A DNA stretch of 56,168 nucleotides, the filler included, from Asterionella formosa (lineage: Eukaryota), in NCBI GenBank assembly GCA_002256025.1. It is 6 parts of 6 records of this genome, joined end to end, with 100 filler letters (N's around TTAATTAATTAA, not from the genome) between each part and the next. Parts side by side here need not be neighbours in the genome. Positions count along the whole stretch, not along the records: positions 46,902 to 56,168 come from NKIB01010910.1; 5 more parts are not named here. One strand, given 5' to 3'. The position numbers were made by a program, and so were the translations under genes. This document shows positions 3,600 to 56,168 of the stretch, in pieces. The notes under the pieces were generated by a model. It saw nothing but the letters and a program-made list of their open reading frames with translations. It had not been told where the DNA came from and ran no database searches. Within the stretch, counting starts at the first letter, position 1; every line of letters begins with the position of its first letter.

Positions 3600-3820
3600 G
3601 GATTGGGACAATTATTTTGCGATTTTGATGGAAGATGGGATTTACTTTCGATTATTATAGCTAGCTGTCCTACCTGGTACCAGGTACCCAGTAAGAATGG
3701 CAACGATCAGGTTTAAATGGATGACCATCACTGTATAATAGTGTATACCGGTAGTGCTTCTGACTTGGTATATAATAACCAGGTTATTAATACTGCTTTA
3801 CTAACGGTATAATTAACCAA
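3600..3820. repeat. ~220-bp dispersed repeat, copy A (inverted relative to 7603-7824)
   Basis: GGATTGGGACAATTATTTTGC...CACTGTATAATAGTGTA...TATATAATAACCAGGTTATTAATACTGCTTTACTA aligns to the reverse complement of 7603-7824. Confidence 0.8.
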
Positions 3821-7192: not shown

Positions 7193-7407
7193 TGTTGTAG
7201 TTGAAACTCGGATGAAACGGACGGCAATAGGCACTGGAAACAGCAAGAAAACAACAGAAAGACAATGACTGCTTCGACGTGTGTTCCATGTTCCGTCAGC
7301 ACGTCGCTAAGGTCAAGACTTGACAAATACGGACGAGTGCCAGGCGTTAATAAGCGTACATACCGATACGTAAATGTACACATGTATAGCATACACATCT
7401 TTAAAAT

Positions 7408-7502
7408 CAGCAAATTGCGGTAATTTTGTTGAAACTAAGCATTTAGCTATCTTTATCCCATATCAAATTGTTTGTTTAAGCAAAATGACCGCAACTTGCT
7501 GG
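7408..7502. mobile_element. MITE-like hairpin repeat, copy 1
   Basis: Arms CAGCAAATTGCGGTAAT / ATGACCGCAACTTGCTG. Closely similar to the reverse complement of 10731-10826. Confidence 0.7.
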
Positions 7503-10176: not shown

Positions 10177-10178
10177 GA

Positions 10179-10590: not shown

Positions 10591-10730
10591 CGCTTGGTAT
10601 CCGGTCGTCTACCACTACCTGGTACCAGGTACTCCTACCATACAGCCGTACTTAATGATTTGACACACAAACAAACAAAACATATGACTCTTCTTATGAT
10701 ATATACATACAAGGTACCAGGTAGCAGGTA

Positions 10731-10826
10731 CCAGCAAGTTGCGGTCATATTTCTTAAATAAACAATATAATATGGGATAAAGATAGCTAAACTTTTAGTT
10801 TCAGCACAATTACCGCAACTTGTAGG
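10731..10826. mobile_element. MITE-like hairpin repeat, copy 2 (TA-flanked, CC...GG ends)
   Basis: TA|CCAGCAAGTTGCGGTCAT...ATTACCGCAACTTGTAGG|TA; reverse-complement homolog of 7408-7502. Confidence 0.7.
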
Positions 10827-11307
10827 TACCATACCAGGTTGTACCAGGTAACATTTACATACGAGGATATTTTTCCCAATATGTATACCCGGTAGTCAGC
10901 AACCGCTAAATTTCAAATATCACTTTGCGCCATGTCAACCACTTATTATGTGCATTCCGGCGCGCTTGACGGGTCCGCTGTCCACTGGACCATCACCTTC
11001 ACTACCGGTAAACTACCGGAACGGTAAACTTATTGCACCTGTAACGTACACGACAAAGCCAACCGATAGACTGCCTGGTATTCCTACCTGGTAGGTACCC
11101 TTACCAGTCACAGTGCCAGCGTACCAGTACTGCGTCTAGCACCGGGACGTTGTCCTACCGGTAAATGTAGCGGTACAAGTACCGGTAGCAATTTGATTTG
11201 ATTTGATTTGATTCCTTCATCCCACTAAAAAAAACAACCGGTATTTCATTCATAGTACCAGCCAGGTCATCCCGGCCCTGAAATAGTCAACAGAAAACCG
11301 ATTGACT

Positions 11308-18827: not shown

Positions 18828-18998
18828 TGAACTCATTAGAAACAGATACCGGTAGAATGACCATGTCCCAAATTAGGTATTGGCATGGTGTGAGCATTTG
18901 GGCAATCAATGAAATCTGTTGAACTCATTAGAAACAGATACCGGTAGAATGACCATGTCCCAAATTAGGTATTGGCATGGTGTGAGCATTTGGGCAAT
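18827..18998. repeat. Perfect 80-bp direct duplication (18827-18906 / 18919-18998)
   Basis: TTGAACTCATTAGAAACAG...GCATTTGGGCAAT occurs twice with a 12-bp spacer. Confidence 0.9.
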
Positions 18999-21379: not shown

Positions 21380-21653
21380 ATCCATCGGAAATGATCTAGA
21401 AGTGATTTTCAAGGGCATACAGCTCAGTTATATCAACATCATCTACAGTCCCGGGAGCAGTGACCATAATGGCCATTGCATCCTTACCTCTGATTTCCTT
21501 GAGCTCCCTCTGCCGAAATGTCATTTTTTCAAGTGGATGGTCTTTTGAGATGTTCACATGATGATTTCGGACCCACAGAGATGGGTGAATGTACTTGGAA
21601 AGGCATGAAAAGTTGGCACCTTTGCCCATTGTCAAATTTCGTTTTCGCACCAT
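21380..21653 (-). pseudogene. Relic resembling the N-terminal region of diatom piggyBac-like transposases
   Basis: MGKGANFSCLSKYIHPS...LEK...RELKEIRGKD...ELYALENHF*IISDG. Resemblance recalled rather than searched; no DDD core seen. Confidence 0.3.
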
Positions 21654-24084
21654 CCTGCACAGATTTTTTTGAGAGATTTTTTGGCATGCAGACTTCTCAT
21701 GTATCTGAACTTTTTAAACATATATAAGCTTATTGCCATTCATACCTCCGGAAACATACAGTTCTCTAGATTTAGATTAACTTTTCAGAAATGAAATATC
21801 CGTTGAATTGAGCTAGGGCAAGAGATTGAAAACCCAGAATGAATCCAGTCTATTAAACTGAAATCAGTCTAGCCGGAATGAATACAATATAGTATCTCAT
21901 AATTTTCAGTTTAACCCGATCTCTATTTTTGGGACTCACGTTGTCTTACTCTACCTGTAGTTGATCATTCTATCGATAATAGGTACTGGGTACTTGATTT
22001 GAGATTATAACGAAATTTACAAAGTAAAAAAGGGAAAAACAACACTTGGAGGAGCTTTGCAAGTTACCTGGTACCAGGTACAAGGGGTACAACTTAAAAA
22101 GCTGAAAGGCAATGTGAAATTGTCGGCCGAAGTTTCTTAAATGATAAAATTCGAAAAGATTGTGAATGTTATTTTAGTTGACCAATAGAAAGGGGATAGC
22201 TATCATTTAATCAGTTCTACAGTACACCTGTGAATAGATTTTCCATTAGATCTAACGTTTTACTCAGCATACGTTAACAAACTGATTGATTATTCAAATA
22301 TTTTGACATGTTGATTACAATTTTGATATATCACAAGCCGTGTCTGTATGATCAATCAAATATGTATGTTAGGTAACTAGCATACACACGTTAGGTTATG
22401 CGTATATAAGAACTTGTAAATATTAGTTGCCAAATCTAACCCATTAACCAAAATGGTTGATATATTGATCAAATGTTTTGTTATGTTGATGATAATTTTG
22501 ATATTGGTACTCCCCAATAAGCGAAATGAGCTTTTGCATATTGAATCAACGGAGAAGAAAGGAAACGTGCACTTAGTTTACAATTTGTTGATGTCCTCCC
22601 AACGATTGTCATCCACGTACCACATTGATGGCTTCATTAGCTTAAACATACTCCATCCTTCGAAGGCGCAATGTATAAAAGTTACAATGTTTTTCGTTAT
22701 TGCATAAACTTTCCTTGGTATATTCTTTACTTTGATATTTCTTTTCACAAAGCAGGCATTGTTTGTCAACATGACAGAACGATTTCAATTATATTTGCCA
22801 TGTATATAGTTATAAAATTTGTTAATATATAAATATATCAAGTGTCATACATTTATAAAATTCAAAGACACTCTCATTCGGTCCAACCTTTGGAATCCTA
22901 ATATCAAATAGAATTTGTAGCTTTTGATCTAACGTTCATGACAACTTATCTAACTAATTTTTCTCATTGATCAAACCTATTATCATGTTCGATCAATGAT
23001 GAACACAAAACGATTTAAATGGATTGTTATTTAATACTCAAATATTATACTTCTGGTCACCCATACTTTCCACTGTGCATCCTCTATCAGAACGAGCAGA
23101 CAGTGGTCTCCAACACCTTAATTTTCACTTCCGGTATCTATGTTTAGATCATTGCCTTCTCAAAATGAAATGAGAGAGTATACGAAATTGATGATGTTTT
23201 ATTCGAAGCTCTACCATTGCGAATGGCAGCAAGTCAAATTCTCTAATGTTCTTGTACAACTTTCCTGTACGAGATAATAACAACAATGTTAGCAAAACTG
23301 TTACATCAAGTGAGCAAGACAGCCATCTAAACGAAGATATGTGCAATAAAACGATCACATGAACAATCCATCACTCCAATTTCCATATGAGCAGGCAACT
23401 CGCATATTACTTACCTGTGCGAGAGTTGTACCGCACACTGCCACTATGTTGTTCACTAATTCTGGAAAGAATGGCTACCCAAAACATCAGAAACCACACC
23501 AAGATTATACACCGACAGAATACGAAAGGGAAACTCCTATGCCTTTGGGAATGATGATGTCCTTGTCTTTAGGAGGGAACTGTTTAAATATATGGGATAA
23601 TTGTGCGGATGAGAATCATGCAATACATTTGTCCATATCATTCAAATTCATCTTTCTCATGCGTGGAGATATAGTCAATGGAGAAATGGACACTCTGTCG
23701 CCGAACTGAAACGACAGGATAACAACATACACACTGATGGATCAATATTTGGTCGTAACTAAAAAATTTCGTCATTCTTATTGCAACATGACGGAATAGG
23801 GTGGTCTATTGATCTAATTTCATAAAAACCAATCCAAAAATAAGTTTTTGGGCTTTTGTTGTTAGTAACGGCCGTAAAGTAACCTTCAAAAACATAAGAG
23901 ATTCATCAATGGCATGAGGAATACCGCAATACTGGTAGGGCAAACCTACTGTTTGAGAGTACCGACAAATTATACAGTATTTTAACATGAATGTTTATTT
24001 GGTACCGATGCGTATCATCATGAAACTTAGTTACAAGTGCAGACGAATTCATTTCATTCGATGGCTAATGGTATTGGTTGACAA

Positions 24085-27271: not shown

Positions 27272-28045
27272 CATCAGTAGACATAATTCCACCAGTGTTG
27301 ATTTTGAGTAATAAAAATCACGTAAAAAAATTGGGTTGCCTGCCACTGGCTAGAAGTACATTTACCTAGTACCGGTAATAACCTACATAACATGAAAACT
27401 GGGAAGAGGGAGCTTTTTTACCGGTAAGTGTGAGTTCTTCATGTGATGTATCTCAGATGGATGACATTAGACACCACAAATATCCTTACTATTTCATTAA
27501 ATAAAATGCGTGTTGTGAATGTATTAGCCTCAAGAGCAGGATCTTAGTTGAACTTTCAAATGAATGATTTGAAACATCAACTAATTCAGTCTCACGTTCA
27601 AAATTCATTGTGAAAACTTTACATGAAACAGTTAAAACTTCACATGAAACCGTTAAAAGTAATCTTTTTACGTGAAGAGGGGCATTAATGCATGCGAAGT
27701 ACCACATAATTAACACTCATACATAGACGAAATTTCGAAAAGTCAAATGAATTATTTGAAACATCAACGCGTTCAAAATTCATTGTGAAAACTTCACAAG
27801 TGGCGTATTTCGCTACTTAGATGTTGTTGACGACGATGTTGATTTTGAATGGATCTAATAGAATCCAATGCATACTTAGTAGTTACATAATAATTATAGT
27901 TAGTGTGAGACTTCTACAAATGCAAGCCATATCATAGATGATAGGAAAACATTGATTCTGCTCTATACTACTATTACTATTAGTGCCGCCTGTACTACAT
28001 GTAGCGGTATACCTCCATTTTTACTACTATAGTGGAGTGATAATT

Positions 28046-28145: not shown

Positions 28146-28488
28146 TATTATGACTATTCTATTGCTGTTCCAAGTACATCGTTGTCAGCACTCACGCATG
28201 TACCTAATCTGGTGGCTGCGCCGGTATGGTTCGTACGGCGCATGTATGGAGCATCATATGCAGATATTAACACTTACAATGGAATTTTTCGGACAGGAGA
28301 TTTTAGGACTAAAAATTCCGGCACACGACTGCCATTCCAATGATGACGTTTTGGCACTTAATAATTCTGATTCCGATATTTTGGCGACCGTAGAAAAGGC
28401 CGATTTTGTCGAGTTTTTGGACGACGATAGCTAAACGTTGGCTGGGTCTGATGGCGATTTAGATACATAGGCAACTTTCAAATAGCAC

Positions 28489-28641
28489 CAGTATATAACT
28501 TCTGGCGAGAAACTGCAGAAAGGAACTTCGGTTTTTTTACTATGCCAAATAAACAGATTTCCCCCGAAATTTCGAGTCTTTTTAGCGTAGCTAAAAAACC
28601 GAAGTTCCTTTCTGCAGTTTCTGACCAGATCCTATATACTG
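28489..28641. mobile_element. 153-bp MITE-like hairpin with CAGTATA...TATACTG ends
   Basis: ~55-bp inverted arms with a perfect core AGAAACTGCAGAAAGGAACTTCGGTTTTTT / AAAAAACCGAAGTTCCTTTCTGCAGTTTCT; no clear TSD. Confidence 0.7.
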
Positions 28642-30289
28642 ACAATATATTGAGTGAACCTACAGCCCTACTTTGTCCGAAGACTGTATTTAAGCATATG
28701 GAAAGGGTGTGTATTGGTGAAAGCTCCGTTGAGCGTTATACATTTTTAATTTATATGTGTAAAGTACGTGTTTGATTAGTCTGACTGAATATTATTTTCT
28801 TAACCCTACCTCGAGCTATGGGTTCAAATGCAGCAACCTTAAATTTGGACCAACGGTACTTATGATCGGACCGCCAGGCAGACGCGTAAAACGCACGAAA
28901 TAAGCGCAAAGATTCGCTTGTGCAAAGCAGTATATTCCTCTACGCAAGTTTGTAGCGTAGGATGTAATATGACAAAACGAACGAATATGTTGATTTTAAA
29001 TATTAGACAGCCTGGTCCAAACAGGTACTGACGAGCGGGGAGGGCTGGCCGAAATATGTACCAGCGAACATGGACTGTGTACACAAATAGCAAGGAGGCC
29101 GATTCCAGCGAAATTATCGTTTTCTTGAGTACAATTTTTGCTCTATCGTGAACAATGATGAAGCAGAGAAAACGAACAAGCCAGCACGATGATCGCCGGT
29201 GGAGCTTCCAGTGCACACGTGAGCCAGACAACGCTCAGGAGGACTAGCAACGTAAGTGTGCTATGTTGTAGTAAGCCAATACAATAGTGCGTAGGTTTAC
29301 TAGTACAAAGAGTACGAAGAATGACGGATGTGCTGTGGTGGAACGGATATAGATCATTACACGAAGATCTGGTTCAACGAGAATGAACCAATTATCTACC
29401 AGATACTCGTACACAGGTTTACGTATGACGATCGATGCAGCAAAAATATGCTCAAGAATGAGAAGGATTTGCGACGAAGCCAAAAACAAAACGCTGATGT
29501 GTTGCGAAGAATGAAAGGAAGGCAACCTTAGAATGCCAAATAAAACTCTTTTACTCAATACAATTGTGTACTGCTGCTGTGTAGTGTAGTATATATCTAG
29601 ACTGATGTAGCAGACAAATGAACGACGTAAAAACAAGCGAATACGAATGAGATTTTGTGGTCAGCACCAATGGTGAAATCGAATTAACAATCAACAATGT
29701 CGTTTTGTTCAAGGAAACAGCTTGAGCTCATAACCCGTCATGAAAGAGGATAAGATAGCGAACGACGATGATGACGAAGGAGGAGGAGAGTAGGGTAAGT
29801 CAATTAACGAACCTGACAAGCTCAATAGGAGTTTGTAAGGGCTATGTTAAATAGAGTGATTATAGTAAAGTAAAAGTAAATAGACACAAACATAGAAGAA
29901 CAGCAACACAGGTAGAGGCAACCGTCTGCAAATAAAAACTATCATATTTCCATGATGCATCATAGGATTGTGATCATCTGATCATAATATTTTGTTATAT
30001 CATCTAATAATTTTGATAAATGCCTTTGTAATTTAATAGTAACCCTTTTGACTACATATATTTAATTATTATATGTATTGTTTCTATTTGATTCCTGTAT
30101 TCGAATTTCTTGGTAGGATAATGTATCAGTTCAAGTAATGTAATTTGGCTCGTCATTTCCATCCGTCATCACTCCGATTTTTGCAACAACAACGAAATAC
30201 TAGTGATGACAAGTGGAATGAATGTTTGCGATAATGTCTTCAATTTGTTGGTCAAGTGATCATTATATCTTCGAGTAATCGTCACGTGC

Positions 30290-31762
30290 AGTGAGCCTTT
30301 GTTCATAATCATTCAATTAAGAGTTTACAGGAGAGAAGAAACCATTCGAACTCGTAATGGTTCCGCATACAGCGCACAAAGTAAATCCGTTTCGTCGACT
30401 TCAGCATGACAATTTCGCCAATCAACCCGAAAACAAACACATTCTACTTGTTCTCGTTGACATTTTCAATTCTCACATGATACTACATCTACTATTGAGA
30501 TTCAGCATAGAAAGAGATAAGAAAATGTGCGTAACAGACTACTGTCCACATAGCTATAGTTATAGAATGATTCTGATTAGAATTTCATTTTCATATCGCT
30601 TGCTCGTTTCTGCATTTGGCATACTGTACTTGAATTAACTATTGAACTTGTCCGCATCTTTGATACCCTCAAGAGAGCGAATGCAAGTAGCTCTTTTCAT
30701 TGTTGTTTGCTTGTAGGAAGAATTTGATATCTGTATCGTCATTTGCTTGTTGGAATTGTCCGTTGCCTCAAACCTGCTTGGCGTGTGCATACACACACTG
30801 TCGACTTGTTTTCATTGGAATGTTGTTCTTGTATTCACTGTTGAACTTGTCCGCATCTTTGTTAACACCAATAGAGCGACAAGTGGGTCTCTTCATTGTT
30901 GTTTGCTCCTGGAAAAGTCGGTGTCCGTGTCCATGTCATCCTCATCAATAGAGAGACAAGTTCTTTCACTGGAAAAATTGGTACTCGTGGTATCATCATT
31001 CGCTCGTTGGAACCACTGTCCGTTGTCTCAAACCTGATAAGCGTGTGAGTATGTGCACTGTCGACTTTTGTACATTACAGGCGGAATGACTTAGCTACTA
31101 AATTGCGTGATACAATAATATACCCCATAAGCACGATGCAGAATACAGTTCCCAATCATCTCATCATGATTGATAAGATGATAATGTGATATGTGATATC
31201 ATGATAGGGTTACATCGATGCATACATCACCAAAGTATGATATGTAATATTGAATAAAGTACATCACATAGCTATGATACATTGATCATAAAACTATAAT
31301 GATTTTATAAAATGTTTATGATATAATTTTGATCAAAATATGATTCTGTTAAAATAGTACAATGACAATAAAATACGATAAAATATGTACGCAAGTGTTA
31401 CCAAGACATCATAGAAAATAAATCAAGCAATCATAAAGTATGTTAATTAATATATGTGTTTGTCGTTTAATTTATACAGTTAAAGTCAACAGTTAATATG
31501 ATAGTATTATACAGTGGATAGGATCTAAGTATACGGATGCGTTGATATGTACATCACTATAATATGATTTGTGATATGGATTGATGCATATCACATACCG
31601 GTATCCTCAACAACCGGCCATCACGTTCATTGTTGTGTCGTCTTTCCTAGTTTTAGCTATATACCGGTATATGCCAGCATGTGTATTGTGTAAACACTAC
31701 GCTGGCGGAACATGCATATTACACTGTGCTCTGTTCAACAATTACTGCATTCGGTTACCATC
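30290..31762. repeat. ~1.47-kb non-coding repeat (homolog of 25839-27271) upstream of the Ulp1-like ORF
   Basis: Contains two internal diverged units (TTGAACTTGTCCGCATCTTTG; TGTCCGTTG.CTCAAACCTG) and an AT-rich ATCAT/ATGAT-rich block. Confidence 0.92.
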
Positions 31763-31857
31763 ACACCAGTTCCACCTCCACAAACGCCGCAAAAAGCTCC
31801 GCATTTCCATTCCACTGTTTTACATCATAGTCTTCTGGCCCTTTGACAACTTTCCAA

Positions 31858-34059
31858 ATGGCATTTGACGGATTTCATGGAAAGGATCAGTCAAACAAGA
31901 AACGAGACTTACTTCCATTGTTTACACTACACGACTTTATGTTTTCGGAAAAGAAGAAGAAGAAACTTATGAAATCAATCGAAGATTCCTTTGAATACAC
32001 TCAAAGATCAAATGAATTTGAACAGATTCATAATACTCCAGAAAAAATAATGAAGCAAGTATGCCGATACAATAGTGGCTGAGATTGAAAAGAAGGAAAG
32101 ATTGCTTTCGAAGAGGAAACCCAAACAGTTGTTCTTCACAGATCAAGACTCTATTCGTACAGAGTCACAGTTCCATCCAGTGTCGTATTTTGCTCATTCA
32201 CCCGAAATCGATGATAATGAAGAAGAACTCAGTGATTCTCATTCATTTGATGAAAAAAATCATGCGATGAAAGAAAATATCGGCGGAAATGTGGCAGACA
32301 TCACTTCTGAAGTAGAAATGGTTGAAAAGTTGCAAAACCAAGAAACATATCTCACTATCCGTCCAGAACATCAAGATGATCATCATGAAAGCAGAGAAAC
32401 TATTGCATTTCTAAAAGAAAAGATATTCAAGAAAAAGTCTGATCTAGATCAAGACCTCGCTCGAATTCAAGAAGATCAATGCAGACAGAGATGTGATGCT
32501 GGCTAAGGCAGTTGATGCTCTGATTAGGGAACGAAGTCTGAAGCACAAAATTGAATTTTTTCCAAATCATACATGGAAGAAAAAGAATTTCTTTGTAAAA
32601 TCATTAAAAACAATCCAGAAGGCAGCTACTTTTGTGAAGAGTTGGCATGTGAAATGTGTGGAGTTATTATGCCAAAGCAAACGGCATTTTCCTTGAGTTT
32701 GCCGAAATCGCATGGACAACTAAAATTGTGGAAAGAGTTGTACACTCATACCCCACAAGATATATTAAATTACCCCTCTTTATTTGATGGAGTCAAAGGT
32801 ATCAAAAAATCATCTTCAGATTTTAAAGATCTTGCATATTGGGACCTTGGAACAATTACCTTGCTCTATGATCCATTATATAATTCATTAACTTCATCAA
32901 ACTGATGTAAAGGTTGTATTTGATCTGGATGAGAACCCAGAAAAGGGTAATAACAAGCCATATATATACCAAGGTGATTGTAATCCACTTCATTATGACA
33001 GTAACTATGTGCTAATTGTTTATTGCAAAAGATCAGATGAGGAGGAAAACAATCATTTTGTGCATTATCTTTTTGCTATAATAGATGGATTATGTCAAGT
33101 CCGTGACCCAGGAAAAGATGCAAGTGTGGATGAACATTATAATCAAGTATTTCACCTTGCCTGTAAGTACTGCATCATCCCTGGATGCACCAAACAATTG
33201 GAATTGTTATGCACCAATACAGGGTATCTTCCACAAGAATCCCATATACCTGAAGAAATTGGGTTCTTGGAATCTTTCTATACTGGCACCAAACAAGCAC
33301 CATTGCAGATCAGTATGGCCACTGAACACGATTCCATGTTATTTCAACCAGAAGATGACAGTGGATCGTCATGTGGACCTTTTACAATTTGTGAAAGTGT
33401 TGGAAACTCTATTGCAATGAGAAAGGAATGGCAAAAGCAAATTTCTTGGCAAACGGTCACATTTCCGTTTGGAGACTGAGTCCTGGAAAGCTTTAAAACG
33501 TCAGGTGGCAGCAACAGATCGAACAGACGTTTTTTAATCTGTTACATCTGACCCACCAACCAAGTCAACTTACTTTCATCTTGGAACAGTTTGGCCTCAA
33601 GTGACAACGACAAACATTCATGAGGATATGTTTCAGTTGGAAATAACTGTTCTTCAATTTTGTATCGACAAAATTTTGAGCTCCTATTTAGATTTAAAAA
33701 TGTTGAACGAAGTATTTGGACGACTTCCTTGCAATTCATCTTTCAAGAACGATGATGTTGTCAAGGTGAAATCCATGATCCAACAAATGAATGAAAAAGT
33801 TGCTCCCTTCAAATGGTATAATCATGCACCTCTTGGCCAAATTTCTGGATGCATCAAAATTGACAAAAAGTTGAAAAAATATTTTGTAAGTGATGATAGC
33901 CCTTCTGGAATCAAATTGAAGAAGTTTGCAGACTCGCTCTTATTGATCTGCAGTTGAAAAGTGGAGAAGCAAAATTTCGGACAAAACGAGAAGGACCATC
34001 TTTGGTTCTTTGGGAGTGAAAAAGAACAAATAATGGACCATTGGATAATCATTTCTTAG
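31858..34059 (+). pseudogene. Fragmented ORF with Ulp1/SENP-like (C48) cysteine protease domain, convergent with the Plavaka-like transposase
   Basis: Chain of frameshifted ORFs from 31843 to 33957. KVIVI/PLHYDS(N)YVLIV...IIDGL...FQPEDDSGSSCGPFTI follows the C48 order IP.H...HW.L / D / Q..D..SCG, with N at the catalytic His position. Confidence 0.6.
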
Positions 34060-34149
34060 GAAATTGTAGTTTGTGAAAACCTCATAATAACCAATTTAGT
34101 ATGCGAAACTAAATTGTTACCATTATCATTTATATTATTCTTATATATT

Positions 34150-46901: not shown

Positions 46902-47597
46902 AATTCGTCACCTTCGATGGCGCCTTCATTCGGTCCTGAATCTTGCTGGTCAACCATCTCTAAATCTTCCGAGTCCGTTAAAGACGCATTACGCCTGATA
47001 GCTCCAATATTTGCCTTTCTCTGATCGAAAAGCGTCGTGGTGCTTCTCTTCTGTCGTCGGACCATGAAAAGAGAAATCGAGCCCAAGAGGAAGCACATGA
47101 CTTGCAGTCGAATCTGGGACAAAGCGAATACAATCCAAGGAGTCAGCCCAAGTTTCCACCAGTTTCGACATAATTGCCCTTCACACTTACCACTAGAAAC
47201 TCTTCATCTGTTTCAGTCCTTGCACAGCTCCTGAACTGCACAATGTCAGCTGAGTCTGCGTACGGAGCAAAGCTAGAACTGAGACAATAATGAAACAAAA
47301 CTCAGATAGGGAAACGTAGCTATTTCGCTTACCTTCCTTCTCTGCCCTACACGAAAATAGTTGGATCCTGGAAGTTGCCTTGCACTCATCTTGAGCGTTT
47401 AATTGAGTTGCTGTGCACATTTCGCAGTCGCCTCTCGGTTCACAAAACGATAACGATTCATCGTTGGACAGAAATCGTTGAAAGAGGGGAAATGGAAGAT
47501 CTTCTTCCATCCAAGGCTCATGCATTGCCTGAGCTTGTGATCCAAGGACTGTTATCAGCGAGAGAATGATGGGCTGGTAGCGTCTCCGTGTGTTCAT
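46902..47597 (-). CDS. JTB (jumping translocation breakpoint)-like membrane protein; 3 exons, runs off the contig edge
   Basis: Signal peptide; C...GDCEMC......C..T......C...FRSC cysteine pattern; TM followed by VRRQKR. Two 77-bp GT-AG introns (47256-47332 and 47114-47190) give one continuous frame. Confidence 0.7.
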
Positions 47598-47950
47598 TGT
47601 GCTCGCCGTCGTCTCCTGGCAAGAAATATCTGATTTTCATAAATACCAATTCATGTCACATCTGATATGGACAAGGGGAGAGGGGAGAGGGGGGAGGGGG
47701 TCTTACTACTACCATGGTACCAGGTACTGGTACCTGGTACCAGATACCAGTTACCAGGGGTATATATAGTACCTGGGATCGCACCTGAAACTACGATATA
47801 ATGTATACTCATGTTCCAGGCACATAGTACCAGGTACCTGGTACCTGGTACTACGGCTACAAATTCTGCCTGACTGTACACAAGTATTATGCTGCGTATT
47901 TTAAATCACTCCATCACAAATCGCAGGCAACCCGCCCACATTATCATCAT

Positions 47951-50900
47951 TTATTCAAAGAACTGCTCACGGGTTAGTAAAACAGCATAAGTGCTCGTCT
48001 TGTTGGTGAATGTACCAGTCAAAGAGTGTGCGTCTTTATGAAATCGAGGTGTTACAAGAAACATCTTCGTCTCCTTGCCTACAGCAAACATAGCAATCCG
48101 CATCTTTGCCTCGTAGTCCTTGTAAAATCCCTTGTACGCATCAGATTCAGATGTTACACTTAGGCGAAGTGAGACTACTGTCCAACGACCCCCGTCAATC
48201 TTTTGACGAATAAACTTTTGAAACTCTGGAATGGACAGGCGACCCCTTTCGGAAAAAGTGTCCGGTAAAAAGCCGCTGCGAATGTGAGACAACGAATCAC
48301 CTTCATACAGCAACTTCCCTCGAAACGTATTTCCGTTGACGCTAAACGAGAATTTTTCAGAACCAGAAGCTGAAGCGACAATACCTTGCCTAATTTGCAC
48401 TGTAGAAGGAGAAAATGCACCTGAATTACCCAGAGGAGGGGGCGGTGGAGGCATGGAGCTCAATTTCCGGAGTCTACTAGCGATTCCCGGTGATGTAGAG
48501 TTGGGCGACAATGGCGAGAGGTTTGAAGTTGACACATCAAAGTCGGCATTGTCGTCTTTGTGAGTACTCAAAGCTAGTAGTGCAAGGGGTGGTGGAGTGT
48601 GGGATATCGTTTTCTTGGAAGGAACGAATTGAGACATACAATCTACCTCATCTTGAGGTGGAGTTTCTGGCTGCTTGGTAACCACAGGTAATGTCTCCGA
48701 CAACGATCTCATGGCAGCCTTAAGAATATTCTTTACTGAGCCATTTCCTATGGGGGAGTTGCTGATCGTTGCAGGAGCAATGACAAGATTCTTCGTTCTC
48801 TCCTCTTCCGCAGCAGCCTTCACGTGTCGAACATGTGGGATGACCATGTCCTCAGGGGTCATTGCTACGAGGGCTTCCGCACTGAGTATGCTCAACAAGT
48901 ATCGGGCAGCAACAGTCGGATTCCTGACATCTTCTATATTTGATCGCAAGCTGATCACCTTGTCACGATAATCGGCTTGGCTGTCTTTATTTTTATAAAA
49001 AGTGGCGCTTTCAAGGTCGAACGCTTTCAGTGTGCACAATAATGCTACATCCGTAGCATTCAATTGAATAATTCCCATCATCTTCATGCCCTTGATCAGC
49101 GCCTTTTCAAGGATTGACCTTGCTTTGTCCCTAGAGGTAGTATCAACTGTCGATTGTGTCGAAGACAGCCCCCTACTTTGGGGCTGAATACGGCGACGAT
49201 TCAACAAATCCATCAGGACGTCTTCACGTTCATCTACTGCGAGATGTCCATCTTCGTAGCGCCGCCTCCTTAGATTCTCTAGCGTGATGATACCATTGGA
49301 GGAATTAACGCAAATTTCAACTTGTTGATCAATTTTTGTATTCATAGCAAGTAATTCATCAATCAAGCCGATATGCGGAGTAACAACCAAAGAATTTCGC
49401 CCTTCGTCAATGAGGCGTTCTGTCTCTTCTCGGAATCTATATAATTGATATATTGCTTCCTCATCCATTGAAGCATCTGCCTGTGACAAAGGGTAATTTT
49501 CTGTCTGTAGAGTGCACCGGCTTTCCCACTCCAACATCCGTGATACGTCTTCCTTCAACCAATCATGGAGAAGGGCGCACCACTTGAGACAAGTACCACC
49601 CATGCTATGATGGGCACCACCCTTCCCTATCAAAACGGTCAGCTTATTTGTCTGTTTGTTGGTTGTTACAAATATCCTATGGCTGGAGAGCGTTTTTCGT
49701 ACGCCGTCTGAGATTCCATCAAGGAACAAGGTATTTCCATCAATTAGTATCTGGTGAGCTTTAATAGCAGGAATTGAAAGGGTTTTGATGCTACCAAACG
49801 AAGATTCACCAACTACTGAATCATTCAGAGACTTCACCCACTGCATTGCACGTCGGATCCACTCAAACACAGCTTTACCCGGGGTATCAGCATAAATGTC
49901 ATTGGCGATCTTTTCGATTCTTCTTGTGGCACTAAGCAATTCCTCGAAAAGTGGACTCCCAGTCAATCGATACAAGTGAAAGTCTCCGTTATCGCCAACA
50001 AGCGAGTCAGAGTCAGGGTAAGGCGCTTTGTCTGTTGCTGATATCGCAAAATCTTCACCTAACAAATTGTGAAGCTCGATTTCGAAAGCGTGGACGTTCT
50101 CCAGGACCTCTCTGACAGCGGCTTCTCGTGGCATCGACACCATCGTCAAGATAGAGTTCCTCGCCAAATCTGCTAGTTTTGACAGATCTATCTGCTCTTG
50201 AGCCTCAGGCTCATTCAAAAATGACAGCTTGCAAGGAGAACCTACAGGAGCCCGTCGTTTTGAGCCGCGAAAGGACAATGCAAGAAGTTGGGTAACTTCT
50301 TCTTGCCATGAGCTTGCCGAATCATGTAGTTCTCTTACTCGTAAGGCAACTCTGGCAATATCAGTGGGGTTCCCGTCGTCGGCTGATGCTGGGATCCTTT
50401 CAAACAGTGTCACGAGTACATCCCATGGCAATGTACTCGACTTAGTCAAGCTTTCAAGGTTGGCATCATCGAAGTGTAGCACAGGGTACGAAAGAGTCTT
50501 AATTAACCAGCTTAAATCTTTGATGAATTGGTCGAGTTGCTGTTCAAGGTCGATATTGAGAACAAAGCCAGGACCAGATTGCGATCGCGCTTTGAAGTTT
50601 GACTGAATTTCTTTAAGGTGCAAAAAATTCTGCCGCAACGAGTCAGTATTTTTGTACGATCCTCGAGTCAATTCCTTTGTCGCAGCCAATATCATCCTTG
50701 CTGTCGCCTCTACTTTTTCCGCGTCATCAATCAACGTTTTATAACTTTCCAGTTCAGAGGAAGGAATCTTCCTGATAAATCGAAGGAACACCAGATATTC
50801 ATCACTACGGGTCACAGAGACACAAGGCTGAGCATTCAAAAGACCCTTGGCACTGAGCAATGTTGGTCGACATGGGGATTTCTCCTGTCCAGTACATTTA

Positions 50901-53900
50901 CAATTTTCTAATAGATCAAGAATTTCAATTCTCCACAAAATGAAGGCAAGGCATAGAAGAGCGTGTTCGTTGTTATCATCGTCAAGAAGCCTTGAGAAAA
51001 TAATCTTGCCAAGCTCGGTTGTCTCCAGCTTTGCTTTCGAAAGTTGCCGTAATTGTCGGTGAGAATCCATTAGTGCGGTAATGTGTTTTATACTATTCTC
51101 TGGATTGACAACGAATCTCCTGTCGTCGGAAGTCTCGTGGCTACATGAAAACGCCACGACAACGTCCATGCCTTCGAGGATTAGTGGGTAAAAGGTTGAC
51201 AAGTCTATGTCTTCAACCAAGAAAAGATGCAGCGTGGTGGTGACTCTATTTTGCCAATCAAGGGCCTCAATCCATGAATCAACAACGTGCCTTGTCGGCT
51301 CCATCATAAGGCCTTTAGGCCTTTGCTCCCTAGCTTTCACTAAATTGGTATACAAGTTATTTTTCCCATTTATAACATCTGAGACTTTCCACGACCACTC
51401 TTTTGCTTCCCGCTGGACTCGAAGGATGATCTCGAGCTCGTTTGAAAGCGTGATATTCAACTTTGGATATTCTAACAGTAGATCGTCAATTCTTTTTAAG
51501 TCAACCATTGCAGCTGTCTTTGTTGATAACATAGGAGATCCTACCAGAAGGTTGCCATGCACTCTCAAGGCCGAAACAATTGAGTCTGCTCGTTTCTTCC
51601 ATTCGTGACTACAATTAAAGAGCTCCTTCACTTGGCATTCCGCAACCCTTGCAAGCATTGTTGCATCAAAGGCAGCGAAGGCCCGGATTTCCTTATCGAC
51701 AGATTGATTAGTTTCTAATCTTGTCAAGAGATCGATTCTTGTTTGATTCTCTCCCGCAAGGATCCTAACTAGCTCTTTGTAAAGCTCCTCGATTATGCTG
51801 TACTCATATGGCGGCCCAAAAGAAAGTTGCCTTTCCGCTCTTATTTTCCAGTTTATGATATCAAGGCGGACAGCGAGCTTCTCCTCAACAATCGAGAGAA
51901 CGGGAATTGATCGGATATGATTAAAGGCTTGAGAGATTCCTTCTATGCTCCTGAGACTTTCGGGGTCGGCGGCAGAAGTACAGCTTTCCGCTACAAGTCT
52001 TTCAAATTTAGTGAAGACATGAAGGTTTGCATAGAGACTGCTGGACACTTTTTGAACGTCAACCATAACCTTTGCAAGCCGCATTGGTACCGAATCCTCA
52101 CCATCTGGAGAGTTTGGTGGTGAAGGAATCTGAGGCAAATTCGGCGCTCGTGATACAACTCCTTGGACAAACGGAACGCGCTCCCGAGAATTCACGCAAT
52201 GCCGCAAATCGACTACCCACTCGCGAACTGCAATGGCATCTAGGAGAACGGCGCGATTCATCTTGGAGCACCTTGACGAACCAAGTGGATCAATATTCGT
52301 GTATTGATTATTATTTTCAGCAGCATGTTTGAGACCTCTCAATGCAATAAGAATTTCGTCCTCTTTCTTCAATGCACCCTCTTTAGGCTCTTGCACTAGA
52401 CAAGATATTAATTTCCAAGCCTGATTTTCGAAGCTTTGAATGGATTCAAGCTTTATTTTTAGCCTAGATGCAAGGTTTGAAAGATCACACCCTCGCAAGA
52501 CTTGATGATTCAAGTATTGTTTGTAACATGAATTGACGTCTTCAAAGGAGAAGAAACGTTCCTCCCCATCTTGTTCTTCGGAAATCGATCTAACTGAGTC
52601 GCTATCTTCCTTCGTAATACATATTTCACCACATGTCTCCGTCTCGCTCTGCTCCTTAACTATGGTTGTGTAATCGCCAAGCACAGTTTCCGCTTGTCGC
52701 TTCCATCGAATAATTGGCTCTTGTATATGAAACGAAGTGCTACGAAGCATTTCAGCAAAGATTTTCTGGAACCAACGTGTATCATTTTCAACAATCTTAG
52801 CTGCAATATTTTGAATGCATTTGTCATTGATGAATTGGCCTTCTGTAACTATAGAAAACTGATCTTCGTCGGGGGAGTCTGGTGATCCAAGGGCACCTTT
52901 AGATGGTCCAAAACCAGTTTCTTTGGGTATCCGTCTTCGTTTAGTCTTTCTGGATCCACATGGAACATTAGTGGGTTTCCTTTTCGATCCTCTATGGGTT
53001 GCATCCATTGCTACTAGTTTGGTTAGTTGCACTCTACCGTCCTCGATGTAGCTTTCCTGCAAACTTGTCACATCGGCTAGCGATGAGTTTTCTCCTGACC
53101 CAAAAATTTGCTGATGAAGAATGAAGCATTTCTTGTACCAAATACTCGCATTGTATAATTGGTCTAAGCAGGCAACGAGATGATTAACGTACGCTTCAGT
53201 TGGGTCGTCTAAGCCTCTGTCCCCGTGATCAGTGATAGGTGCAAGCTTCGTTCTCAAGTATAACTGCGCTTGAAGATGAAAGATCAGAAGTTTAACCTTA
53301 ATAAAGTCTTGTTTCAGAGGCCGAGTTACTGCCCCTTCCTCGTCAATAATTCCACCATTTCCCGCATATGCGAGTTCAGTATTAGTCGCATCATGAATCC
53401 TTTGCAGTCGCATCATCGCCGGAACATCGTCTAGTGTCATAGTGTCAGCCGGCAATCTATTCTCCAATATATTGAATTCTATACTCGGAAACAGAATTAC
53501 TCTCGTACGCCGAATCCATGCCCGAGCGGATGGTCTGACGAGTTCGCGCTTCAAAGTCATATCGTAGATTTGATCGTCGCCAACAAACTTTATGAAAAAG
53601 AGGAATTGGCCCTCTACACATTTTTTAGCGGAGATGATGAAGCCGTCATACCAATCCGATGGTTCTGCTTCATTCTCCTCATTTTCATCGTCATCATCAC
53701 TTGTCGCGACGGTTCTTTGTTGTGCCGCCGCTCGTTCAATATCGCCTTGCACTGATGATGATGGAATATCAGAAATGACTTCGTTCGTTATGCTTGCAGC
53801 AGTTGCTTTATCATGCGTTAGATCGCCCCCATCACTGTCCCAAAATATTTCCCAATCTCTTTCAATAAGGCTGCGGGCCCATTCTTCTTCTGTGTGGTGA

Positions 53901-53905
53901 CTCAT
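47951..53905 (-). CDS. 1984-aa nuclear protein with TFIIS central domain and C-terminal SPOC (PHF3/DIDO/Bye1-like), N-terminal Tudor-like fold and helical repeats
   Basis: R.KAR.IL.KAL...AFDLESATF...YRDKVISLRSNIED.RNP...LVAMTPEDM (TFIIS_M). LPDTFSERGRL...F.KFI...Y..FY..YE.K.R.AM....MFLV.P (SPOC). WEIFW...WYDG.I...F.IKF.GD (Tudor-like). Confidence 0.85.
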   Translation of the reverse strand: MSHHTEEEWARSLIERDWEIFWDSDGGDLTHDKATAASITNEVISDIPSSSVQGDIERAAAQQRTVATSDDDDENEENEAEPSDWYDGFIISAKKCVEGQFLFFIKFVGDDQIYDMTLKRELVRPSARAWIRRTRVILFPSIEFNILENRLPADTMTLDDVPAMMRLQRIHDATNTELAYAGNGGIIDEEGAVTRPLKQDFIKVKLLIFHLQAQLYLRTKLAPITDHGDRGLDDPTEAYVNHLVACLDQLYNASIWYKKCFILHQQIFGSGENSSLADVTSLQESYIEDGRVQLTKLVAMDATHRGSKRKPTNVPCGSRKTKRRRIPKETGFGPSKGALGSPDSPDEDQFSIVTEGQFINDKCIQNIAAKIVENDTRWFQKIFAEMLRSTSFHIQEPIIRWKRQAETVLGDYTTIVKEQSETETCGEICITKEDSDSVRSISEEQDGEERFFSFEDVNSCYKQYLNHQVLRGCDLSNLASRLKIKLESIQSFENQAWKLISCLVQEPKEGALKKEDEILIALRGLKHAAENNNQYTNIDPLGSSRCSKMNRAVLLDAIAVREWVVDLRHCVNSRERVPFVQGVVSRAPNLPQIPSPPNSPDGEDSVPMRLAKVMVDVQKVSSSLYANLHVFTKFERLVAESCTSAADPESLRSIEGISQAFNHIRSIPVLSIVEEKLAVRLDIINWKIRAERQLSFGPPYEYSIIEELYKELVRILAGENQTRIDLLTRLETNQSVDKEIRAFAAFDATMLARVAECQVKELFNCSHEWKKRADSIVSALRVHGNLLVGSPMLSTKTAAMVDLKRIDDLLLEYPKLNITLSNELEIILRVQREAKEWSWKVSDVINGKNNLYTNLVKAREQRPKGLMMEPTRHVVDSWIEALDWQNRVTTTLHLFLVEDIDLSTFYPLILEGMDVVVAFSCSHETSDDRRFVVNPENSIKHITALMDSHRQLRQLSKAKLETTELGKIIFSRLLDDDNNEHALLCLAFILWRIEILDLLENCKCTGQEKSPCRPTLLSAKGLLNAQPCVSVTRSDEYLVFLRFIRKIPSSELESYKTLIDDAEKVEATARMILAATKELTRGSYKNTDSLRQNFLHLKEIQSNFKARSQSGPGFVLNIDLEQQLDQFIKDLSWLIKTLSYPVLHFDDANLESLTKSSTLPWDVLVTLFERIPASADDGNPTDIARVALRVRELHDSASSWQEEVTQLLALSFRGSKRRAPVGSPCKLSFLNEPEAQEQIDLSKLADLARNSILTMVSMPREAAVREVLENVHAFEIELHNLLGEDFAISATDKAPYPDSDSLVGDNGDFHLYRLTGSPLFEELLSATRRIEKIANDIYADTPGKAVFEWIRRAMQWVKSLNDSVVGESSFGSIKTLSIPAIKAHQILIDGNTLFLDGISDGVRKTLSSHRIFVTTNKQTNKLTVLIGKGGAHHSMGGTCLKWCALLHDWLKEDVSRMLEWESRCTLQTENYPLSQADASMDEEAIYQLYRFREETERLIDEGRNSLVVTPHIGLIDELLAMNTKIDQQVEICVNSSNGIITLENLRRRRYEDGHLAVDEREDVLMDLLNRRRIQPQSRGLSSTQSTVDTTSRDKARSILEKALIKGMKMMGIIQLNATDVALLCTLKAFDLESATFYKNKDSQADYRDKVISLRSNIEDVRNPTVAARYLLSILSAEALVAMTPEDMVIPHVRHVKAAAEEERTKNLVIAPATISNSPIGNGSVKNILKAAMRSLSETLPVVTKQPETPPQDEVDCMSQFVPSKKTISHTPPPLALLALSTHKDDNADFDVSTSNLSPLSPNSTSPGIASRLRKLSSMPPPPPPLGNSGAFSPSTVQIRQGIVASASGSEKFSFSVNGNTFRGKLLYEGDSLSHIRSGFLPDTFSERGRLSIPEFQKFIRQKIDGGRWTVVSLRLSVTSESDAYKGFYKDYEAKMRIAMFAVGKETKMFLVTPRFHKDAHSLTGTFTNKTSTYAVLLTREQFFE

Positions 53906-54355
53906 GGTGAGTTGTTTCTACAATCCCATTGTGGTGGCAAATACGAGTTTGGTGGTGACATAACCAGGTATGAGAGAATATACGAGTGGTACTGGTACCT
54001 GGTACCTGGTAACGTACCCCGGTAGTTATGATACGTAGTCGAGTGAGTCGACTTTGGGTGGACCAAGCTCCGATGATCAACCGTCACACAATTTTATTCT
54101 GCATGATGTATGAGCTGGTGGACAAGGTAGACTACCGGTACCTAATGAATAGACTGATAGTTTGAATCTAATGGTCAATGTTATAAAACCATGATCAATT
54201 AATGTGAGATAGGCATTGGTCTATCTATAAATGAATGATCTGACAAGTGCAAGTGACAGTTGGAGAGTTGTTTGTTGGATTATTCAAACTGAACAAAAAT
54301 AAAAACTAGCTAGCTTAGTAGTATGTTTTAATTCACAGCAAAATAAAGCAATTAG

Positions 54356-54778
54356 NNNNNNNNNNNNNNNNNNNNNNNNNNNNNNNNNNNNNNNNNNNNN
54401 NNNNNNNNNNNNNNNNNNNNNNNNNNNNNNNNNNNNNNNNNNNNNNNNNNNNNNNNNNNNNNNNNNNNNNNNNNNNNNNNNNNNNNNNNNNNNNNNNNNN
54501 NNNNNNNNNNNNNNNNNNNNNNNNNNNNNNNNNNNNNNNNNNNNNNNNNNNNNNNNNNNNNNNNNNNNNNNNNNNNNNNNNNNNNNNNNNNNNNNNNNNN
54601 NNNNNNNNNNNNNNNNNNNNNNNNNNNNNNNNNNNNNNNNNNNNNNNNNNNNNNNNNNNNNNNNNNNNNNNNNNNNNNNNNNNNNNNNNNNNNNNNNNNN
54701 NNNNNNNNNNNNNNNNNNNNNNNNNNNNNNNNNNNNNNNNNNNNNNNNNNNNNNNNNNNNNNNNNNNNNNNNNNNNNN
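54356..54778. other. Intra-scaffold gap (423 N, no linker)
   Basis: Pure N run lacking TTAATTAATTAA. Confidence 0.9.
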
Positions 54779-55328
54779 ATGTGTTTTGATACTTTCAACT
54801 GCAATTGACTTTGGTATTTGGTCGATGTGGTGGAGATGCTCATAGCAAGCTTCTTGACATGGAAACACAACATTTCACTCATTGGACTATAATGGTGTCC
54901 ATTAACAGTGCAAGCGAGCCTTTTAGGGCCGTTCTTATCAGTCTGTCATTGGTCGTCATTGGTGTATCCTCATCTCCGAAATGTGATTCAAAAATAGCGG
55001 ATTGGTTTTTTTGTGTATCACAAACGGTTCTTTTGGTCTGATCACCGGTGTATCATGGGTGTATGCATCACTAAGGATACAGTTTTTGGACACCTGACCA
55101 ATGCTGTATCAGTGATAAAGTCGTTGATCGCTGTGTATCAACCATGTCCATTGGCAATGATAAAATAACTGTAAATACACAAGCACAACACTACATAATA
55201 AATATTGCGCCAACTAAATTTTTTGTTATATATATACTATGTATACACTAGCTACCTTTCAGCTTTTTCAGTAAAAACAAGAATCAGTAGTCCGCTAGTC
55301 TCTATACCTGTCTTCCAAGTAACATTGC

Positions 55329-55880
55329 TTGACTATATCTCGATTAATTGGCGCAATCAGCAGCAAAGTAGTGGATATAGTAGCTGAAACTTCTGATGCT
55401 GCCAATACTCCCATTTCGGAAAAGAATCAATGGCGTGTAGCTAATGAGGATGTCGAAGGTATTGTTGAGTCGTCTACTACTGGTCCAACCGATATTGACA
55501 AGATGGGTTTTGTTGAAAAGAGGAAGTCTCCAACTGCTGGTACACTTGACATTGACAAGATAGGTCCACCTGAAAAGAAAATACATCCAACTGCTGGAAC
55601 ACTTGATGTTGACAAGATGGATCCATATGAAACTAAAATACCTCCAACTGCTGGTTCACTTGACATTGACAAGATGGGTCCACCTGAAAAGAAAATACCT
55701 CCAACTGCTGGTACACTTGATGTTACGGCATGGAACCATGTCGTCCATCTGCATCTGGGAGTTATTAATGGTATTATCGACAGGAGCCATTTTTTTGTAG
55801 CAGCGACTGAAGAAGAAATGTCATCATTGCTTTCAGTATCAATAAGGGGATCCTGTGTAGCTGATTTTGTTTTGGGCTGA
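55329..55880 (+). CDS. Probable exon with in-frame 57-bp/19-aa tandem repeats (PTAGTLDIDKMGPPEKKIP); gene model unresolved
   Basis: About 4.5 repeat units at ~55475-55725. The period is a multiple of 3 and the frame stays open. Confidence 0.45.
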   Translation: MTISRLIGAISSKVVDIVAETSDAANTPISEKNQWRVANEDVEGIVESSTTGPTDIDKMGFVEKRKSPTAGTLDIDKIGPPEKKIHPTAGTLDVDKMDPYETKIPPTAGSLDIDKMGPPEKKIPPTAGTLDVTAWNHVVHLHLGVINGIIDRSHFFVAATEEEMSSLLSVSIRGSCVADFVLG

Positions 55881-56168
55881 TCCAAGGTGCCAGCAAGAGA
55901 AAACCTTTCCGGCCGCTTTGCCCATTTGCCCCATCGATGTGGGGTGCTTGGGGGGCATCATGGGAGGATGTTAACTCCTCACACCATTACACGTAATCAG
56001 AGGAATGGTTTTGAAGCACCCCGTCATCCAGCATTTATGTCCTGGTGTCCAGTGAGGCACCCCGCCCCTCCACCTGGGCGACGTCAGTTGACACAAGAAA
56101 TTGGAAAACGAGGTATTATTTTCTAACCGTTTACCATTAAAAGAAATATATACATGACGAAAAGTATA

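Follow-up and report, generated by a model that had tools for sequence, protein, structure and literature searches.

The stretch of DNA analyzed here, referred to as the window, comprises 56,168 bases of the Asterionella formosa genome assembly GCA_002256025.1 and consists of six contigs joined by N spacers (Table 1). It has a GC content of ~40% and contains an extra N gap inside contig 6 (54356-54778). The window contains long, intron-poor open reading frames (ORFs), and the best named relatives of one of them, a DOMON/copper monooxygenase, are diatom proteins from Fistulifera and Thalassiosira (38%). Contig 6 was also found in public lake and freshwater metagenomes and metatranscriptomes, which identifies a freshwater diatom as the source. 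Our analysis concerns a family of short units, TA-(CCGG/CCWGG/CTGG/CCAG)-TA (W, A or T), with the core palindromes TACCGGTA and TACC-A/T-GGTA, which occur singly or as arrays in all parts of the window.

Two of these arrays, A and B, form the focal locus on contig 6. Their inverted arms are located at 47712-47727 and 47841-47856, and each array folds to a stable hairpin as a single strand (z -3.85). The locus contains two genes on the minus strand, one for a 1984-aa protein with a TFIIS_M domain and, downstream of it, a small gene that is represented by a spliced RNA contig over 46902-47113, 47191-47255, and 47333-47647, segments separated by two GT..AG introns of 77 nt each. RNA contigs of the TFIIS_M gene span 47885-53917 and 50394-53954, and arrays A and B therefore sit between two regions covered by RNA, the 3' part of this gene and the 5' part of the small one. 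Locus-specific RNA contigs were found neither over 47648-47884 nor beyond 53954, but as contigs break at repeats these gaps prove nothing and are uninformative on transcription or start sites. Other RNA contigs hold array-like stretches, some of them internally, so that arrays elsewhere can occur in RNA libraries. The stretch TATATATA between arrays A and B is a possible TATA box for the minus-strand gene with its ATG placed at 47597. A G-rich purine tract with GGGGAGA-type repeats (47664-47700) adjoins array A and was excluded as a repeat from the contig alignment, and RNA contigs end nearby.

The summed depth over the array bins was 314 (X11) and 209 (X13) compared to ~5 alongside, values that do not represent copy number and to which other organisms may contribute, and 217 of 291 aligned contigs (X11) and 140 of 199 (X13) showed a partial fit only. 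Depth and partial fits together show that many other contigs share array-like stretches. Five strain single-nucleotide polymorphisms were located between arrays A and B (47777-47809) and none inside the arrays, which is too few for a test of constraint.

Table 1. Features of the window (positions count along the whole stretch; MITE, miniature inverted-repeat transposable element; TIR, terminal inverted repeat; a caret marks an element boundary)
Feature	Position	Strand	Remarks
Contigs 1 to 6	1-9283, 9384-18665, 18766-28045, 28146-37425, 37526-46801, 46902-56168		
Array A	47716..47760	.	TACCAGG-TACTGG-TACCTGG-TA, then degenerate units (CCAGATACCAGTTACCAGG); from sequence and single-stranded DNA hairpin fold
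TATATATA stretch	47761..47770	-	Between arrays A and B; from sequence
Array B	47827..47851	.	(TACCWGG)3-TA, W being A, T, and T; orientation inverted with respect to array A
TFIIS_M-domain gene (1984 aa)	47951-53905	-	Contig 6
Array TACTGG-TACCTGG-TACCTGG-TA	53990..54011	.	84 bp 5' of the ATG (53905) of the TFIIS_M gene
Array TACTGG-TACCTGG-TA	39219..39233	.	13 bp 5' of the first ATG in ORF 38081-39205 (methyltransferase, minus strand)
Densest island of the window	42539..43187	.	12 family matches and many degenerate ones; upstream of a 767-aa ORF (43172-45475, plus strand)
Palindrome TACCAGGTACCTGGTA	42749		Within island 42539..43187
Island with 9 family matches	10616..11187	.	Upstream of ORF 11609-12451 (plus strand); includes TACCTGGTACCAGGTA at 10616
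TACCTGGTACCAGGTA and single TACCGGTA	3671..3753	.	TACCTGGTACCAGGTA at 3671, TACCGGTA at 3746
TACCTGGTACCAGGTA, third copy	22065..22080	.	
Two single TACCGGTA	18847..18946	.	One per copy of a 92-bp tandem unit near a telomere-type repeat
MITE-like element	10731..10829	+	15-nt TIR CCAGCAAGTTGCGGT...ACCGCAACTTG(T/C)(A/T)GG; at both ends next to the TA of GGTA^...^TACC array units
MITE-like element, second copy	7405..7502	-	Outside arrays, without TA flanks

The family was found 57 times in the window, compared to 1.77 +/- 1.34 times (maximum 7) in 200 dinucleotide-preserving shuffles, which within the window bears out the k-mer over-representation proposed as a check in the initial annotation. 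The palindrome TACCGGTA accounted for 23 matches (0.23 in the shuffles) and TACCWGGTA for 22 (0.30 in the shuffles), and eleven control palindromes of like composition, among them AACCGGTT, ATCCGGAT, TAGGCCTA, and TAGGWCCTA, occurred only 0 to 2 times each, approximately as expected. By type, the units comprised CCGG (23), CCTGG (14), CCAGG (8), CTGG (7), and CCAG (5), and they were grouped into 34 singles, 7 doubles, and 3 triples. The central base of the 9-mer was A or T in 22 cases and C or G in 2. Relative to a first-order Markov model, the TA-flanked words were enriched 91-fold for CCGG, 68- to 119-fold for CCWGG, and 9- to 12-fold for CYGG. Both runs quoted in the initial annotation were recovered unchanged (GGTACCAGGTACTGGTACCTGGTACCAG, 47716-47743; GTACCAGGTACCTGGTACCTGGTAC, 47827-47851), and the other runs listed there lie at 3671-3693, 10616-10631, 10713-10732, 22065-22080, 39219-39233, 42539-42553, 42741-42764, and 53990-54011. 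Matches were indeed obtained on all six contigs, with contig 4 carrying two single TACCGGTA only. Five perfect palindromes of 16 nt were identified, TACCTGGTACCAGGTA at 3671, 10616, and 22065 and TACCAGGTACCTGGTA at 42749 and 47828. CCGG and CCWGG are classical 5-methylcytosine sites.

Metagenome contigs scanned for three consecutive TACCWGG units yielded at least 123 loci, and among the matches listed two classes of loci could be distinguished. Those with a GC content above ~0.55 contained the seed array alone, whereas those with a GC content of 0.42 to 0.47 contained 13 to 25 additional TACCWGGTA per 8 kb. Among the matches listed, 28 loci of at least 4 kb, with a GC content of 0.40 to 0.48 and at least 8 matches, were analyzed after four overlapping duplicates had been dropped. 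Judged by their sequence, the loci with a GC content of 0.42 to 0.47 are from another diatom of the raphid type, here called diatom 2: the best named matches of its furin-like protease are from Seminavis and Nitzschia (40-50%), and the genes beside its islands include diatom-type genes for DUF6824, HSF, bHLH-PAS, ORC2, and cyclin proteins. Eight other loci (L007, L012, L022, L034, L042, L052, L108, and L109) resemble the window in having more TACCGGTA and little of the additional word repertoire described below, and L007 and L052 have a small repeat in common with the window. Protein homologues common to the window and the fetched loci were not found. The motif is thus present in at least two diatom lineages, with the same core and a different favoured spacer: CCGG made up 51% of the sum of CCGG and CCWGG in the window and 0 to 21% in the diatom 2 loci.

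The motif of diatom 2 is sharp. The center of the 9-mer was A in 194 and T in 191 cases, compared to C in 3 and G in 2, and 385 perfect 9-mers contrasted with 148 matches to all 24 one-mismatch variants taken together. No position was relaxed, and this includes the TA flanks, as variants at the four TA positions occurred only 0 to 12 times each. Markov enrichment of the TA-flanked words was ~330-fold for CCWGG, 20- to 26-fold for CCAG and CTGG, 14-fold for CCGG, and 5- to 7-fold for CGG/CCG and CWG. Single units again prevailed (305 of 391), and the three bases following them were preferentially S-T-A (S, C or G). In diatom 2 the motif is embedded in a wider repertoire of TA-C/G-TA words, with TACTACTA enriched 58-fold, TACTAGTA 45-fold, TAGTACTA 25-fold, and CTAGCTAG 21-fold. 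Its islands (L006-L079, e.g., positions 3700-5110 of L038) consist largely of such words in the form of (TAC)n, (TAG)n, and the palindromic junctions TACTAGTA, TAGTACTA, and CTAGCTAG. The words are arranged in patches of ~100 bp, and this repertoire is nearly absent from the diatom of the window.

Within the arrays, units of different kinds are mixed. W differed in 5 of the 7 adjacent CCWGG pairs of the window, and in the diatom-type loci the ratio of identical to different neighbors was 150:85 compared to 78:9 in the arrays of the GC-rich non-diatom loci. The diatom arrays are therefore much more heterogeneous than ordinary tandem repeats without being random, in agreement with the earlier statement that mixed units rather than homogeneous 7-mer expansions are present. 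Homogeneous (TACCAGG)n arrays occurred in isolation in the loci with a GC content above 0.55 (L001, L003, L004, L017, L028, L037, L073, and others), which are apparently not from diatoms.

The units are largely excluded from coding DNA and biased toward promoter-side intervals. Only 2 of the 57 matches of the window fall into the 12 ORFs of at least 200 aa, which occupy 18.6 of 55.3 kb, and 7 of 9 cellular genes have a match in the 500 bp preceding the presumed ATG, compared to 20.6% of random 500-bp windows. For the latter figure, the gene list and the ATGs were chosen by us and the gene models are crude ORF calls. Both the rarity in long coding sequences and the clustering just upstream of genes that the initial annotation had described were thereby upheld. 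None of the three transposon ORFs of the window has a match within this distance. ORFs of at least 150 aa in the 28 analyzed loci carry 9 matches in 70.8 kb (0.13 per kb), compared to ~8 per kb in seeded intergenic intervals. The 15 seeded intervals comprised 8 divergent, 7 tandem, and no convergent ones, whereas unseeded intervals comprised 5, 11, and 15, respectively. When tandem intervals were divided into quartiles, running from the stop codon of the upstream gene to the ATG of the downstream one, they contained 10, 27, 50, and 31 matches. Over-representation and promoter-side placement, as for a cis-regulatory transcription-factor site, were thus both observed, the placement bias being common to any non-coding repeat in a compact genome.

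The comparison of alleles showed that the arrays are polymorphic by unit length. In a near-identical trio of loci (L042, L109, and L108) with 3 mismatches in ~1150 bp, all four indels were located within motif sequence. Three were 7-bp differences (TACCAGG, GGTACCA, and TACCAGT) and the fourth was a 6-bp difference, GGTA[CCGGTA]GG, which amounts to TA in one version and TACCGGTA in another. Of the three mismatches, one was a flip of W (CCTGG/CCAGG) and a second lay 4 bp from it within the same unit. This polymorphism shows that slippage acts on the arrays: in head-to-tail arrays alleles differ by whole units, as expected for slippage, whereas the homogeneous and mostly tandem arrays also expected for it were not found in the diatoms, in view of the 150:85 ratio and of the share of singles, which was 34 of 44 groups for the window and 305 of 391 for diatom 2. 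At the focal locus, one X11 DNA contig was 7 nt shorter than the window over 46902-47873. L052 is a more distant version of the L042 region, and some arrays were present in one of these two haplotypes only. For this single pair of loci, one array was unchanged, one occupied the same place in both but was degenerate in one and (TACCTGG)4 in the other, and at least three were present in one haplotype only; one of the latter, of 26-29 bp, corresponds to an empty site GTCTGC^TGC without TA. The pair also differed by a 25-bp block duplication and by ACCTA[CAGGTA]CG, i.e., TA in one and TACAGGTA in the other haplotype.

The enrichment, the strict A/T-centered dyad, the restriction to TA-flanked words, the promoter-side position, and the occurrence of one core in two lineages argue for a specific molecular reader or writer beyond slippage. 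We favor, with a probability of about 0.4, the reading that the units are dyad-symmetric protein-recognition sites in promoter DNA that are amplified and trimmed by slippage of units. The half-sites TACC and GGTA, either abutting or one A/T apart, would together be bound by a dimeric protein of pennate-type diatoms. As successive units share GGTACC, a single site would readily turn into a 7-bp tandem repeat, and replication slippage would then add or remove whole units, making the arrays hypervariable between strains. Such arrays could offer an adjustable platform for binding, e.g., of a general promoter factor or a factor of nucleosome-free regions. We infer that a protein reads the motif, that this reader would be a factor of transcription or chromatin and not a transposase or nuclease, and that the number of copies would affect expression. 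Its presence before most of the sampled genes and in a second diatom lineage makes the motif a candidate for a general promoter or chromatin element, and because co-occurring strains carry different numbers of copies, it could allow regulation to vary rapidly within natural populations.

Several observations weigh against such recognition sites. We know of no protein that binds the motif, and a single transcription factor does not explain the wider word repertoire of diatom 2. Unseeded convergent intervals still carry 8 matches in 7.7 kb, and the promoter-side bias fits neutral repeats equally well, because promoter-side intervals are nearly the only free DNA in compact genomes. In the comparison of L042 with L052, motif columns were 74% identical with 32% gaps, whereas other columns were 87% identical with 15% gaps; this fast turnover, together with the presence or absence of whole arrays, is unlike sites under strong purifying selection. 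Finally, the sharpness of the motif combined with the near-random orientation of the units (150:85) looks more like an origin by copying or insertion than by point mutation. Fast turnover, sharpness, mixed orientation, and the diatom 2 repertoire, which fit copying or insertion better, sustain two competing explanations, neutral repeats and excision footprints.

According to the first of these, the units are a self-propagating palindromic simple sequence without any reader, spread by slippage, by fold-back or template-switch copying, and by templated end-joining, and tolerated nowhere but in promoter-side intervals, where DNA is free. The concentration of hypervariability in the arrays and the duplication or loss of whole blocks, such as the 25-bp duplication, are consistent with this explanation, as are the two unit orientations, which template switching at palindromes would yield, and the folding of the arrays as hairpins. 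The islands of diatom 2, with ~2 kb and ~8 units per kb, resemble expanded filler, and its (TAC/TAG)n repertoire is lineage-specific, being nearly absent from the window-like loci. However, pure slippage leads to homogeneous arrays, such as those of the GC-rich loci and unlike those of the diatom loci, and it leaves unexplained the 90- to 330-fold enrichment of isolated perfect 8- to 9-mers in unique contexts, the TACC(W)GGTA core with its A/T-only center in two diatom lineages, and the lack of enrichment of palindromes with the same composition. We regard a purely neutral origin as rather doubtful.

The second explanation is that of the initial annotation, which had interpreted the arrays as stacked footprints left by a transposon with CC..GG ends. 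In this model, a TA-targeting cut-and-paste element inserts preferentially into earlier scars in open promoter DNA, its excision leaves TA, 4 to 5 terminal bases, and TA, and slippage then acts on the stacks. The predominance of single units over arrays agrees with this, and so do the location in promoter-type DNA, the TA flanks that are as strict as the core, and the enrichment of TA-flanked palindromes only. The model is also coherent as a mechanism: all unit types can be described as a prefix of CCAG(G) followed by a suffix of (C)CTGG, and by analogy to the scar of Sleeping Beauty, a palindromic overhang with an unpaired center would give an A/T-only center that is nearly random. Two polymorphisms of the type TA versus TA-N4-TA were detected in all, GGTA[CCGGTA]GG in the trio and ACCTA[CAGGTA]CG between L042 and L052, both of them unpolarized and both equally well explained as microhomology deletions at GGTA or TA. 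Thus one indel of the trio has the form predicted for fresh insertions at TA, but the remaining three of four are whole 7-bp units inside arrays, as produced by slippage, and the empty site of the 26-29-bp array lacks TA. The notion of stacked footprints is thus supported in part, by the strict TA, the promoter-type DNA, and the form of the two polymorphisms, and the slippage indels and this empty site speak against it.

An element with suitable ends is present in part. The MITE-like element with the TIR CCAGCAAGTTGCGGT has a length of ~100 bp, forms a hairpin, shows 84-90% identity between copies, and also occurs at L007 (871-982) and L052 (~376-410). As neither Rfam families nor tRNAs were found in the window, it is not a known RNA gene. 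Its ends, CCAG...CTGG, adjoin an array TA in 4 of 7 cases, and the copy at 10731-10829 is TA-flanked on both sides, but the other 3 of 7 ends have no TA flank. These ends fit CCAG, CTGG, and CCGG units, whereas they fit CCWGG only with loss of bases, the fifth base being C instead of G (CCAGC, not CCAGG). An element with CC..GG ends of the kind postulated thus exists, but its termini are not an exact match. A matching transposase was not detected: Pfam domains of Tc1/mariner/pogo transposases were absent from 46 ORFs of the window and 136 ORFs of the diatom-type loci, which together represent <1% of a diatom genome. A search of ~440 kb for elements of the form TA^CC.G...C.GG^TA with 14 further matching bases retrieved low-complexity matches only and none with unique TIRs starting TA^CCWGG, so that the postulated TA-targeting element and its transposase found no support in these sequences. 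The transposases that were seen are of the Plavaka, Crypton-like, and, at one locus, Harbinger type (DDE_Tnp_4). A Crypton-like element is located at 3-2084, with an ORF containing NDC10_II (E 1.7e-12) followed by one containing GCR1_C (E 6.7e-6). Plavaka/KDZ-type remnants were identified on contig 4 (34292-37001; Plavaka E 3.5e-6), together with a 50%-identical paralogous fragment on contig 3 (25047-25682), and these remnants have no motif unit within 500 bp upstream.

Tc1/mariner elements make staggered cuts of 2 to 3 nt and Minos of 4 nt, and the stagger of 4 to 5 nt needed here is unlike that of Tc1/mariner. Moreover, we know of no precedent for scars outnumbering elements by more than 25:1, which counts against the footprint model. 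Taking both sides together, we consider stacked excision footprints unlikely. The same judgement applies to a broader version, according to which an enzyme, and not selection acting on each site, wrote the promoter repertoire by cutting TA and rejoining it with addition of a short palindrome and a new TA in either orientation, the agent being a TA-targeting mobile element (the CCAG...CTGG MITE family with its transposase) or a related nuclease; an enzymatic writer and such an agent, taken jointly, seem to us an improbable combination to a similar degree. If it were true, transposon traffic and slippage would continuously build and remodel promoters, with lineage-specific scar alphabets (CCGG versus CCWGG plus C/G), and it would be the first case known to us in which transposon excision visibly shapes promoters genome-wide.

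The units might also be relics of transposon ends or transposase-binding sites, i.e., derive from or mimic the outermost bases of mariner-like TIRs and be targets of an active or domesticated transposase. Mariner TIRs start with YYAGGT (Y, C or T), that of Mos1 with CCAGGT, and the 16-mer TACCAGGTACCTGGTA, one of two sequences among the five 16-nt palindromes of the window, can be read as TA + CCAGGT + ACCTGG + TA. The contiguity of MITE ends with arrays would also fit, as would the inverted array pairs that bracket 85 to 175 bp at 47712-47856 and 42533-42763. However, the bracketed segments share sequence neither with one another nor with the MITE, the 46 window and 136 locus ORFs yielded no transposase of this class, and in the more common palindrome TACCTGGTACCAGGTA (3 of 5) the order of the ends does not suit an end-to-end relic. 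This origin appears highly improbable.

Recognition sites amplified by slippage, the reading preferred here, have partial parallels in known systems. Yeast promoter tandem repeats, as Vinces et al. reportedly described in Science in 2009, vary by slippage between strains, a variation believed to adjust nucleosome occupancy and expression. The whole-unit allelic changes (3 of 4 indels) and the arrays upstream of genes are similar, but here one palindrome recurs across hundreds of loci and in two diatom lineages, is mostly single, and forms arrays of mixed orientation. Sites of general regulatory or pioneer factors, such as Reb1 and Abf1 of yeast or the GAGA factor on (GA)n, mark many promoters. 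Like these, the motif is sharp, occurs at many unrelated promoters, and is often multicopy, with the GAGA site as a simple repeat. By analogy, the motif could be a variant of promoter-associated hypervariable repeats or a general promoter motif. The Grainyhead/CP2 consensus is AACCGGTT with the tolerated variant AAC(C/T)GGTT. It shares the central ACCGGT and the dyad symmetry, and AAC(C/T)GGTT parallels TAC(C/T)GGTA, but the outer bases here are TA...TA and a one-base A/T spacer is not a Grainyhead feature known to us. The consensus itself was found 0 times in the window and twice in 180 kb of diatom 2, compared to 23 and 20 occurrences of TACCGGTA, and to our knowledge the family does not occur outside opisthokonts. 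SBP-box (GTAC core), RFX X-box, HSF, and CArG sites were also considered as readers and rejected, since a single TACCGGTA contains no GTAC and the lengths of the half-sites disagree.

Two further systems concern writing rather than reading of short palindromes. The excision scar of Sleeping Beauty is TAC(A/T)GTA and thus, like the present units, TA followed by a short A/T-centered palindrome and TA, with strict TA; the two TA versus TA-N4-TA polymorphisms would extend the likeness. Unlike Tc1/mariner footprints, however, the units have an inner sequence of 4 to 5 nt instead of 3, reach tens of copies per 55 kb and stacks of up to six or seven, and are prone to slippage. Bacterial REP/REPIN palindromes, which are spread by RAYT transposases, are likewise short, intergenic, over-represented, and present as singles, pairs, and arrays. 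They are made by a dedicated enzyme and not through selection acting on every copy. The units described here differ in having a length of 8 to 9 nt and in residing in a eukaryotic nuclear genome.

The accessible parts of the literature contained no work linking the motif letters to diatoms. The palindrome mentioned in the part of PMC3491386 that was available is a different one, ACACGTGC, and the corresponding part of PMC11267843 contains none of the motif letters. According to the available portion of the preprint 10.64898/2026.03.25.714157, the cis-regulatory code that diatoms use is for the most part not known. The motif is a practical marker, as a simple pattern search retrieved diatom promoter islands from metagenomes.

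Some additional features of the window were recorded. Contig 3 starts with a telomere-type repeat, (CCCTAA)x8 at 18783-18827, followed by two copies of a 92-bp subtelomeric tandem unit (18783-19012 in total), and this start is probably a chromosome end. The ORF at 38081-39205 encodes a class I S-adenosylmethionine (SAM) methyltransferase whose named relatives, with identities below 60%, are mostly bacterial and include one green alga, most matches being unnamed; judged by these relatives, the gene may have come into the diatom from bacteria. All four public runs compared with contig 6 contain 21 extra bases after position 48586, corresponding to seven in-frame codons within the 1984-aa TFIIS_M gene, and the window assembly represents at this position either a shorter allele or a repeat lost from the assembly.

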